From IMG/VR virus record IMGVR_UViG_2547132269_000006: a DNA stretch of 4,427 bases; one strand, written 5' to 3'. The DNA comes from a virus (Duplodnaviria; Heunggongvirae; Uroviricota; Caudoviricetes). The position numbers and the translations under genes are program-made. How positions within the stretch are numbered: position 1 is the first letter of the stretch; every line of letters starts with the position of its first letter. The notes beneath the pieces were generated by a model. It made no database searches. It had not been told where the DNA came from and saw only the letters and a list, made by a program, of their open reading frames with translations. Shown piece after piece: positions 1 to 2,121 of this stretch.

Positions 1-184
1 TCGGGCTGGCTACTTAACCCCTGACCACTGTCTGGTAACTCGAAGTATTGCCCTGCGTTCTGTGGGGCGGGGTGGGTTTATGGATACAATTCACAAATTA
101 AAATTTAACTGGTCAACATGTTTATTATTAAATTTGTAATTGCGAGCTGTTGCATCAGTCCCAAAATGGGACTACTATACAGTT

Positions 185-864: not shown

Positions 865-913
865 TGCCTGATGCTCGTTCCAGAAAAGGAATGCATCAGG
901 CAGTTTTGTTTTT
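865..913 (+). terminator. Putative intrinsic terminator for the higBA transcript, placed between convergent genes
   Basis: Perfect 10-bp inverted repeat TGCCTGATGC (865-874) / GCATCAGGCA (893-902) with an 18-nt loop that can pair internally (TTCC/GGAA), followed on the + strand by GTTTTGTTTTT (903-913). The right arm overlaps the last codons and stop (896-898) of the minus-strand repressor gene. No U-tract follows on the minus strand. Confidence 0.5.
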
Positions 914-1288
914 CTGCCGCAGTAACTCTTCAAGTTTCCGTTTATAGAAATCGCGTTTTTGCTCCATATCACGAATGATCTGCTCTGCGTCGCTTTGAGG
1001 TAACTCATCTAAAAGCGATATGATTTTTCGTTGTTGTTCTGTAAGTTGCGGTTGGTTGTCATTACTGGATACAGCCATTTTATCGCCGAGAGTTTCTTCT
1101 TCCATAAAGAACCAATGGACGGGATGTTGTGAGAGCTCTGCTAATTTTTCCAGTTTATCCATTCTTGGCATCACGCCTTTCAACCAACCTTGCACGGATT
1201 GGGGTTTTACACCAAGACGTCTTCCCAGCTCTGACTGGTTTATATTCAATTCCTGCAACACCTGCTGAAGGCGTTTTACAAAGATCAT
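896..1288 (-). CDS. Prophage repressor, short CI/DicA/RacR-type XRE HTH protein without an S24 peptidase domain, 130 aa
   Basis: ATG at 1288 (minus) is preceded by GAGGGG at 6-7 nt spacing; the ORF-track start at 1294 is a GTG two codons upstream. The N-terminal HTH (QSELGRRLGVKPQSVQGW) and an acidic/basic helical C-terminus (LLDELPQSDAEQIIRDMEQ...KRKLEELL) match DicA-like repressor architecture as I recall it. It is divergent from a Cro-like gene across an AT-rich operator region. Confidence 0.8.
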   Translation of the reverse strand: MIFVKRLQQVLQELNINQSELGRRLGVKPQSVQGWLKGVMPRMDKLEKLAELSQHPVHWFFMEEETLGDKMAVSSNDNQPQLTEQQRKIISLLDELPQSDAEQIIRDMEQKRDFYKRKLEELLRQKNKTA

Positions 1289-1426
1289 CACCACCCCTCG
1301 TAAACTAGTTCCGCGATCCTACAGAAAAAATTGATAAGTGGCATTACAAATAGAAGTTGAAATTTAAATTTAAATTTAAATTTAAATTTGTAATTATCGG
1401 TGTCATCGTAAAGTTCGGAGGGAAAC
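1289..1426. promoter_or_regulatory. Divergent promoter/operator region of the lysogeny switch (PRM-like leftward, PR-like rightward)
   Basis: A 138-bp AT-rich intergenic region lies between the divergent repressor and Cro-like genes. It contains inverted octamers ATTACAAA (1343-1350) / TTTGTAAT (1387-1394), the (AAATTT)5 tract, and a candidate rightward extended -10 TGtAATTAT (1389-1397) with a -35-like TTTAAA about 17 bp upstream. The promoter hexamer assignments are inference only. Confidence 0.6.
1360..1389. repeat. Perfect tandem hexamer repeat (AAATTT)x5, self-complementary
   Basis: Read directly: five uninterrupted AAATTT units from 1360 to 1389, bounded by G on both sides. Confidence 0.95.
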
Positions 1427-1687
1427 ATGCAAAAAAGTACTCAAGTGAAAATCCTGTCAATAATGAGCCAATCAGAATTAGGGCGTCGTCTTGGTAAAAC
1501 ACCGCAAACCATAAGTGGGTGGTTTAAAAAACGAGTGCCAGCGGAGGAGGTTATACCAGCATGTGAGGCGCTTGACTGGGGAGTAACTCCGCATGAATTG
1601 CGCCCTGATAAATACCCTAATCCAACCGATGGTTTACCTGTTGAGTATCAGGCTAACGCACAAGCAGCGGCGGGAGTTGATTCATGA
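1427..1687 (+). CDS. ydaS: Cro-like HTH regulator, YdaS family, 86 aa
   Basis: GGAGGG sits 6 nt upstream of ATG 1427. The HTH (SQSELGRRLGKTPQTISGW) is followed by a ...TPHELRPDKYP motif that I associate with YdaS/Cro-like proteins. It is the first gene of the rightward operon, opposite the repressor, and its stop overlaps the next start (ATGA at 1684-1687). The symbol is assigned by family resemblance and synteny with Rac racR-ydaS-ydaT. Confidence 0.75.
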   Translation: MQKSTQVKILSIMSQSELGRRLGKTPQTISGWFKKRVPAEEVIPACEALDWGVTPHELRPDKYPNPTDGLPVEYQANAQAAAGVDS

Positions 1688-2121
1688 AAATCAAGCATGA
1701 GCACATCCGCATGGCGATGAATGCGTGGCTGCTTTATCCGAGGGTAGGGCGCAAAAAAATCGCTGATGATATAGCGACAGCATATTTTGAGCTTGAAATG
1801 ACTTATCCACCAATGCATGACACCTCTACGACAGAGGGTATTGGATTGAACATACAAAATATTTTTCGCTGGCTTGAAAAGGATACGCCTGATGCTGTTG
1901 AAAAAATTCAGGCACTAATTCCAGCTATCCTGACTGTTCTTCCGCGTGAACTGCGTTATCACCTCAGTATTTTTGACACTGTTGAGCGCCGTGCATTACT
2001 GGCGGCCCAGGAAGCGTTGAGCACGGCAATTGATGCGCATGATGATGCAGTCCAGGCAGTTTACCGGAAAGCGTATTTCAGCGACGGCGGGTCATCCGGC
2101 GAGTCTGTTGTGGTGCATTGA
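1684..2121 (+). CDS. ydaT: CII-like regulator, YdaT family, 145 aa
   Basis: The N-terminus MKIKHEHI... and the internal QNIFRWL...LIPAIL..LPRE motif match my recollection of YdaT. The start is translationally coupled to the Cro-like gene (ATGA overlap), with GGGAG 7 nt upstream. Confidence 0.8.
   Translation: MKIKHEHIRMAMNAWLLYPRVGRKKIADDIATAYFELEMTYPPMHDTSTTEGIGLNIQNIFRWLEKDTPDAVEKIQALIPAILTVLPRELRYHLSIFDTVERRALLAAQEALSTAIDAHDDAVQAVYRKAYFSDGGSSGESVVVH

Follow-up and report, generated by a model that had tools for sequence, protein, structure and literature searches.

When a prophage repressor and the Cro-like protein encoded divergently from it carry closely similar helix-turn-helix (HTH) segments, does the likeness mean that both read the same operators, or does it have some other source? 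The question is raised by IMG/VR record IMGVR_UViG_2547132269_000006, of which we analyzed a stretch of 4,427 bases (the window), the region for immunity and replication in a lambdoid prophage (Rac/Qin/CP-933P-like) of Shiga-toxin-type Escherichia coli. Here, a repressor gene in the CI/DicA/PaaR2 position (896..1288, minus strand; an open reading frame encoding 130 amino acids from its ATG) and a Cro-like gene of the YdaS family (1427..1687, plus strand; 86 amino acids, all-alpha Cro fold) diverge from an OR-like control region of 138 bp (1289..1426). We consider it quite probable that the two form a repressor/Cro pair that shares operators, and that the window thus adds a new immunity type to a known kind of switch, CI/Cro/CII (YdaS/YdaT).

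In the proposed switch, the minus-strand gene would encode the lysogeny repressor, an analogue of CI, DicA, and PaaR2 whose XRE head is joined by a linker to a helical tail, and the plus-strand gene would encode a Cro analogue, followed by the CII analogue YdaT and then by replication genes. Both regulators would most likely act as DNA-bound dimers at one short set of A/T-rich sites common to them (ATTTGTAAT, or a TTGNAAT core), which are predicted in the intergenic region, with a second set 5' of higBA. Competition for the shared sites would give a bistable switch.

Where the two proteins agree

The first-pass annotation of this locus drew attention to two peptides, QSELGRRLGVKPQSVQGW of the repressor (residues 18-35; 1184-1237) and SQSELGRRLGKTPQTISGW of Cro (residues 14-32; 1466-1522), and both are indeed encoded there. 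It counted eight consecutive identical residues and assigned them to the recognition segment. Alignment gives nine, QSELGRRLG (repressor 18-26, Cro 15-23), and both the structural models and the alignment with 434 place this run in helix 2 and the turn, as it comprises all of helix 2 plus the turn glycine. The identical run thus lies outside the recognition helix, but this is not the case for the motif as a whole. In a single BLASTP comparison, INQSELGRRLGVKPQSVQGWLKGVMP (repressor 16-41) and MSQSELGRRLGKTPQTISGWFKKRVP (Cro 13-38) are identical at 15 of 26 residues (20 positive; E 2e-9). The recognition helices (PQSVQGW and PQTISGW) share P, Q, G, and W only (4/9), and three of their five differences are conservative (S/T, V/I, and K/T).

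In AlphaFold models based on homologue alignments, both heads are five-helix bundles in which helix 2, the turn, and helix 3 form the DNA-reading unit (predicted local distance difference test, pLDDT, at least 90). The modeled repressor (pLDDT >90 at residues 1-60) has helices at residues 2-14, 18-25, 29-36, 43-53, and 57-61, as assigned by DSSP, which make up the N-terminal XRE domain; these are followed by a linker modeled as disordered (62-83) and, at the C-terminus, by a long helix (100-129). Its helix 2 (residues 18-25, QSELGRRL; 1214..1237, minus strand) aligns with 434 helix 2 (residues 17-24), the turn glycine G26 is the ninth residue of the identical run (1211-1213, minus strand), and the recognition helix, which also aligns to 434 repressor, spans residues 29-36 (PQSVQGWL; 1181..1204, minus strand). 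The Cro model (mean pLDDT 90) has DSSP helices at 3-12, 15-22, 26-34, 39-48, and 55-58, with helix 2 at residues 15-22 (QSELGRRL; 1469..1492, plus strand), the turn glycine at G23 (1493-1495, plus strand), and the recognition helix at residues 26-34 (PQTISGWFK; 1502..1528, plus strand).

Fold and family assignments agree with this description, and both proteins belong to the XRE/Cro-C1 type of HTH (lambda-repressor-like fold). Foldseek matches the repressor head to P22 c2/operator complexes (root mean square deviation, rmsd, of 1.1-1.2 A) and also to SinR and 434 CI and Cro; on the last two the model superposes with an rmsd of 1.6-2.0 A. For Cro, the best match is Xfaso1 Cro (3bd1; template modeling score, TM, 0.80; phmmer E 0.0046), with P22 c2 and CP-933P YdaS (8co2, N-terminal domain) also listed. 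In Pfam, the repressor scores 36.2 bits for HTH_3, above the curated threshold of 23, and Cro scores 34.6 bits for YdaS (PF15943; cutoff 30) and 24.9 bits for HTH_3 (cutoff 23). Cro was assigned to PHROG 35, and it has the position of the YdaS/Cro family, directly 5' of ydaT and divergent from the repressor.

The phmmer alignment of the repressor head with 434 repressor has a one-residue offset, with P29, Q30, S31, V32, Q33, G34, and W35 corresponding to 434 Q28, Q29, S30, I31, E32, Q33, and L34. In the 434 complexes attributed to Anderson (in 1987) and Aggarwal (in 1988), positions 28, 29, and 33 are said to read bases, and the matching residues are P, Q, and G in both the repressor and Cro of the window. 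Across 18 repressor homologues, with identity down to 47%, V27, K28, P29, Q30, S31, V32, Q33, and W35 (VKPQSVQ.W) are invariant. Among 23 Cro homologues, W32 is invariant and Q27 nearly so, and G31 varies (G/A/F/V/L/I/S).

No S24/LexA-like autocleavage domain was found in the 130-residue repressor, to which Pfam assigns HTH_3 and HTH_26 only. This makes it a repressor of the DicA/PaaR2/RacR kind, not an SOS-inducible CI of the lambda/434/P22 type. The C-terminal helix, of ~30 residues, could mediate oligomerization; PaaR2, which would be a precedent, is reportedly octameric.

Recognition helices covary between partners

Whether the likeness bears on operator choice can be approached by asking if it is specific to partners. 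A search anchored on the conserved Cro C-terminus VTPHELRPD.YPNPTDG yielded 80 loci from 185,579 species genomes. From each, Cro and the divergent repressor were extracted and the 19-residue motif was cut out. This left 64 credible pairs, of which 54 were unique, in two clades: A, with 16 unique pairs (that of the window among them), and B, with 38. In clade A, both partners begin xQSELGRRLG; in clade B, Cros read SA..LA..LGVS.M.VS.W and repressors SK.DMARIAGV.PQ.VN.W.

Shuffling partners within a clade separates the two halves of the motif. In helix 2, clade A partners agree at 6.88 of 10 positions vs. 6.57 after shuffling (p=0.08), so the identity is clade-wide rather than partner-specific, and the identical run tells little about base specificity. 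In helix 3, partners agree at 4.31 of 8 positions vs. 2.83 after shuffling in clade A, and at 3.11 vs. 2.53 in clade B (p<5e-5 in each case). Because related loci inflate such tests, we also collapsed the pairs by specificity type. Helix 3 identity for 12 types is 3.86 vs. 2.15 (p=5e-4); the six clade A types give p ~0.002 and a set of four types p ~0.04, with all collapsed values at or near the permutation minimum. Covarying helix 3 pairs include NSQTVSVW/NSQTVSNW, QQTVWQW/QQTVQQW, PQAISSW/PQAIQQW, and SQQTVFKW/TQQTIQKW. Thus, QSELGRRLG is a clade-wide scaffold, and the partner-specific match in helix 3 is the functionally telling signal.

The motif likeness would then have two separable reasons. 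The first is a scaffold of helix 2 and the turn that is common to all repressors and Cros of the clade, the clade A Cro head being repressor-like rather than Cro-lineage-like. The second is the covariation of helix 3 (P-Q-S/T-V/I-x-G-W) between partners across immunity types, a pattern to be anticipated where two proteins have the same bases to read. The earlier suggestion that both proteins read the same operators therefore remains the best reading, given helix 3 covariation, the footprints reported for CP-933P, and the conserved intergenic sites (see below), but the identical run is not the reason for it.

It should be noted that clade B Cros (loci L005-L084) carry Met in helix 3 where the repressor has Gln (S.M[TA][IV]S.W vs. 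[ST]PQ[SA]VN[GN]W). Covariation persists despite this difference, and operator sharing thus does not require near-identical recognition helices.

Candidate operators and related switches

The layout between the two genes is that of a lambdoid CI/Cro switch, i.e., divergent genes, a short intergenic region, and repeated sites, with promoter overlap judged by eye. The 9-mer ATTTGTAAT occurs as site 1 (1343..1351, minus strand), as site 3 (1386..1394, plus strand), where it overlaps the extended -10-like element TGTAATTAT (1389-1397), and as a third exact copy at 132-140 (plus strand). Three copies compare with 0.07 expected in the window, a number that none of 200 shuffles reached. The operator map drawn from these sites is tentative. 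Candidate operator O-b, a 15-bp palindrome of the form ACAA-N7-TTGA (1346..1360), spans sites 1 and 2 and overlaps a TTGAAA -35-like hexamer; the 15-bp site reads ACAAATAGAAGTTGA. Its CAA and TTG are invariant and their spacing is fixed (alignment A5), and in one Salmonella locus the copy is a near-perfect palindrome, GCAATTaTgAATTGC. Candidate operator O-a, ACAG-N6-TTGA (1321..1334), which lies closest to the repressor gene, was read by eye and is likewise tentative; its Serratia counterpart is the perfect palindrome TACAGAAATTTTCTGTA.

Conservation was evaluated in 10 loci from six genera (E. coli, Salmonella, Sodalis, Serratia, Arsenophonus, and Phlomobacter); those from Salmonella, Sodalis, and Serratia were chosen because the VKPQSVQ.W helix is invariant among the repressor homologues, and those from Arsenophonus and Phlomobacter were added. 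The block CA.T.CAA.T-N5-TTG.AATT, followed by an A/T tract and then by [T/C]TG[T/C]AAT, is kept in all 10, with site 1 appearing as ATT[A/G]CAA[A/T]T, and the remaining intergenic DNA is dissimilar. The spacing of sites 1 and 2 is fixed at 13 bp; between sites 2 and 3 it amounts to 31 bp in the window, compared with 19 bp in seven of the loci and 12 bp in two others. Loci whose helix 3 is of another type have different repeats, e.g., TTGATAAATTATTTATCAA with NSQTVS and TATCGATAT with AQTVNG. In the "evolutionary code" proposed for Cro proteins, Pro at H1 pairs with T at +2, and Ser or Thr at H3 pairs with G at +5 (PMC6649833). The T and the G that the code calls for are found at positions 2 and 5 of ATTTGTAAT, and both proteins of the window carry the code residues; in our reading, the code would fit both.

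We also considered sites 1 and 3 as the arms of one long inverted repeat forming a single operator, which is unlikely given that the distance between the arms varies (24, 31, and 43 bp) across lineages. A promoter scan returned no terminators and, in the intergenic region, one weak minus-strand match; the assignment of TGTAATTAT as a promoter element was made by eye and is not among the scan's reports.

Between sites 2 and 3, in the predicted PR promoter, is a tandem repeat, (AAATTT)5 (1360..1389). E2865 has three units, and this 12-bp difference is the sole difference in 250 bp. In all 148 complete E. coli genomes with the region, the tract is 12-14 bp shorter than in the window, and none has the five-unit length. 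The expansion lengthens the spacing of sites 2 and 3 from 19 to 31 bp and shifts TTGAAA (-35-like) from 17 to 29 bp 5' of TGTAATTAT, a weaker TTTAAA taking the 17-bp position. The rightward promoter could be weakened or retuned as a result; other possibilities are a rare allele and an assembly artifact.

The second predicted set of sites lies 5' of higB, where the 14-mer TTAAATTTGTAATT (128..141, plus strand) is identical to 1382-1395 and, together with ATTCACAAAT (89-98), forms an OL-like site pair. In E2865, where the extra base of the left arm is missing, the minus strand has ATTTGTAAAT. Between the two sites there is a minus-strand TTGACC hexamer (116-111), which raises the possibility that the region 89-141 holds a PL-type promoter, directed leftward and controlled by the same repressor.

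The closest functional precedent is prophage CP-933P, for which there are direct studies of PaaR2, which takes the place of CI, and of YdaS and YdaT, which act as Cro and CII, respectively (PMC8630535). Within its 97-bp intergenic region, PaaR2 protects ~78 bp and YdaS 65 bp in overlapping DNase I footprints, each represses the promoter of the other more than its own, and both repress PL (PMC8630535). YdaT of CP-933P binds TTGATT-N6-AATCAA, the consensus of the OM operator, at the end of ydaS (PMC9986795). In the window, this inverted repeat (TTGATTCATGAAAATCAA; 1677..1694, plus strand) is an exact match (0.03 expected) that spans the cro stop and the ydaT start. Having the CP-933P consensus at the same position, it implies a PRE-like, CII-type control point.

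As in CP-933P, the repressor of the window is divergent from ydaS-ydaT, lacks a LexA-like cleavage domain, and adjoins a toxin-antitoxin module, and replication genes follow; the YdaT operator consensus is also common to both. However, the immunity type is different. The published CP-933P half-site GTTTAGTAA is absent from the window, and CP-933P YdaS (PDB 8co2) is undetectable by sequence from the window Cro, which it matches by fold only. The module also differs, as CP-933P has paaA2-parE2 within the repressor operon, and the window has higBA on the opposite strand. A related locus in O157:H7 86-24 with RelB/ParE beside the repressor (L002) was considered as CP-933P itself and rejected, given that its intergenic region is without GTTTAGTAA and its Cro does not match 8co2.

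The classic switches were compared with the window over the same 19 positions, with sequences verified against the PDB except that of P22 C2. The window pair shares 13/19 residues (9/10 in helix 2 and the turn, 4/9 in helix 3), the 434 pair 10/19 (6/10 and 4/9), and the lambda pair 5/19 (3/10 and 2/9); for P22 C2/Cro the values are 9/19 (4/10 and 5/9). The first-pass statement that the pair is closer than lambda CI/Cro is thus correct in itself (13/19 vs. 5/19), but lambda is the extreme case, and 434, at 10/19, has an equal match in helix 3. The window pair is unexceptional beside 434 and P22, and no closer in the recognition helix.

The HTHs of 434 repressor and Cro are clearly homologous, as in the window, and share QQSI in helix 3. 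Both 434 proteins bind the same 14-bp ACAA-N6-TTGT operators, and the candidate ACAA-N7-TTGA of the window is 434-like; 434 CI has a cleavable C-terminal domain, unlike the window repressor. P22 Cro and Xfaso1 Cro resemble the window Cro in their all-alpha fold and in a helix 3 that ends in W, although the helices 2 of the P22 partners are much less alike (4/10). Lambda CI/Cro follows the same switch logic, with a Cro of different fold and a RecA-cleavable CI. Short, noncleavable repressors at the cI position are also known from K-12, in the pairs DicA/DicC (Qin) and RacR/YdaS (Rac), which belong to defective lambdoid prophages that likewise carry dicB and ydfC. One homologue of the window repressor is annotated as DicA, a likeness by name only.

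Several points weigh against shared operators. The covariation test stands on few independent types (4 to 12), from related loci, and the window pair itself, although at the top of its clade in helix 2 (9/10), is near the bottom in helix 3 (3/8, excluding W). Degenerate palindromes (RCAR-N6/7-YTGN, CAA-N7-TTG, and ACA-N8/9-TGT were tried) are not significantly enriched in the window (14 hits vs. 6.3 +/- 3.0), so the operator model draws on cross-genus conservation only. The conserved heptamers overlap the -35-like and -10-like elements, and their conservation could partly reflect the promoter. Sites 1 and 3, if oriented as the Cro code implies, have no evident symmetric half-site next to them. 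We infer binding itself, the bases read, and the order of site occupancy. That the repressor and Cro may bind the same operators with opposite preference is suggested indirectly, by the covariation of helix 3 and the CP-933P precedent.

Origin of the likeness and setting of the switch

How could a Cro of the YdaS lineage have acquired a repressor-like HTH? One explanation, which is complementary to shared operators and which we regard as possible without favoring it, is an ancient partial displacement, in which the clade A cro took the segment from helix 2 to helix 3 from the repressor lineage and became a chimeric YdaS-type Cro. In that case, the proteins would be alike as paralogues, and selection would have kept them so. 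The Cro motifs of clade A are as close to clade A repressors (10.2/19) as to one another (11.0) and much farther from clade B Cros (6.0), yet the Cros of both clades share the C-terminal half with VTPHELRPD.YPNPTDG. At the DNA level, the resemblance to other E. coli prophages sets in within cro (~1577), and 434 cro is a documented case of displacement by a duplicated cI DNA-binding domain (PMC6649833). On the other hand, the window proteins align over 26 residues only, helices 1, 4, and 5 failing to do so, and Cro may have converged on an XRE-like helix 2. The DNA boundary may merely reflect stronger conservation of the C-terminal half. The 434 pair aligns over the whole domain (63 residues, E 2e-14), unlike the window pair, in which the rest of Cro is of the YdaS/Cro lineage. 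A whole-domain displacement of the 434 type is thus not what is found here, the C-terminal half being YdaS-type. The fuller proposal, that one YdaS-type clade carries a chimeric cro and that its recognition helices have since tracked each other across immunity types by selection alone, without gene conversion, seems to us rather unlikely.

In ~420 other E. coli genomes, including O157:H7, similarity at the DNA level (80-82%) starts only at ~1575-1579 and spans the 3' half of cro and the start of ydaT. The repressor gene and the HTH-coding 5' half of cro are swapped in these genomes for other immunity types, and the position at ~1577 resembles a mosaic junction.

It is improbable, in our judgment, that the resemblance is the generic XRE/HTH_3 consensus, with no bearing on shared DNA targets. 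Both proteins match Pfam HTH_3, the Q, E, L, G/A, L, and G of the identical run are common in the family consensus, and helix 2 identity is not partner-specific in the clade. However, helix 3 is partner-specific even after the loci are collapsed to types, the 13/19 of the window pair is far above the family background (clade B Cros share 6.0/19 with clade A Cros and 6.4/19 with clade A repressors), and the BLASTP match has an E value of 2e-9.

We give still less credence to a role of the Cro-like protein as toxin or antitoxin of a YdaS/YdaT pair, with an HTH for autoregulation only. The Pfam names are YdaS_toxin and YdaT_toxin, and toxicity on overexpression is reported for Rac YdaS/YdaT (PMC5700377, PMC5700373). 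Context and experiments nevertheless make YdaS a Cro analogue and YdaT a CII analogue (PMC8630535, PMC9986795, PMC5917428). The CP-933P papers among these (PMC8630535, PMC9986795) would, by analogy, settle the matter of the Pfam naming. Moreover, the downstream gene (ydaT-like; 1684..2121, plus strand; Pfam YdaT, PF06254), whose start overlaps the cro stop codon, matches PHROG 163, a CII-like transcriptional activator (E 5e-37), and the cro/ydaT junction carries the operator consensus of YdaT.

The first-pass estimate of 70-75% DNA identity holds within the identical run (20/27, 74%) but is too high for the 26 aligned codons (50/78, 64%) and for the 19-codon HTH (38/57, 67%). Its conclusion that the likeness is not a recent duplication stands, different codons being used for seven of the 15 identical residues. 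Hence, although the two segments are inverted and ~240 bp apart, an arrangement that would permit conversion, and their amino-acid identity is high, recent duplication or ongoing gene conversion is so improbable that we reject it at the DNA level, for the window as well as for 24 related clade A loci, in which the HTH-coding segments never exceed 38/57 identical nucleotides, share no exact run of more than 14 nucleotides, and match at 39% of third positions where the residues are identical. The likeness is kept by selection on the protein, not by DNA copying.

The proposed shared-operator switch is set among genes on whose families Pfam and PHROGs concur, in the order higBA, repressor, cro/YdaS, YdaT, DUF1376-DnaT, and lambda P. 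HigB (185-487) and an HTH antitoxin (490-849) adjoin the repressor, and a DUF1376+DnaT protein, a lambda P-like protein, and a DUF1627 protein are encoded 3' of ydaT. The annotation of E2865 lists integrase, exonuclease, dicB, ydfC, higB, higA, a minus-strand HTH protein, a "transcriptional regulator," a YdaT family protein, DUF1376/DnaT, replication protein P, and DUF1627. Both regulators are already in RefSeq under generic names (WP_000578360.1 for the repressor, one relative of which is named phage repressor CI and another DicA). In two Salmonella loci (L088 and L089), higBA adjoins the same repressor type, and other family members have PLD-like or unrelated genes beside the repressor, suggesting a variable cargo slot. 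Just 5' of the higB ATG (185), a palindrome, GTCCCAAAATGGGAC (158-172, in the region 151-184), is flanked by TTGCAT (-35-like) and TACTAT (-10-like) hexamers. It is likely the site of HigA autoregulation, and the higB mRNA may be nearly leaderless.

With regard to distribution, 851 bases of the window match a prophage region at 98.6% identity in 138 complete E. coli genomes, largely from Shiga-toxin-producing lineages (e.g., O26, O103, O111, and O45). The prophage family is present in 148 of 5,426 complete E. coli genomes and has relatives in Salmonella, Sodalis, Serratia, and Arsenophonus. A megablast search of a phage collection gave no match to positions 850-1700 of the window, and the element is thus known only as a prophage.

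That a repressor and its Cro share operators by way of similar motifs has been textbook knowledge since phages 434 and P22, and the window is a new example of this known design. It is this region that sets the immunity specificity of a family of prophages whose E. coli carriers include many O26, O103, O111, and O45 Shiga-toxin strains. If both regulators act on the same A/T-rich sites, these would offer a handle on superinfection immunity and on the induction of a prophage whose repressor is not RecA-cleavable. The recognition helices that covary across the family are a useful data set for rules of HTH specificity and, should the chimera reading be true, would let the residues of recognition helices be set out legibly beside the operator bases, with two proteins for every site.

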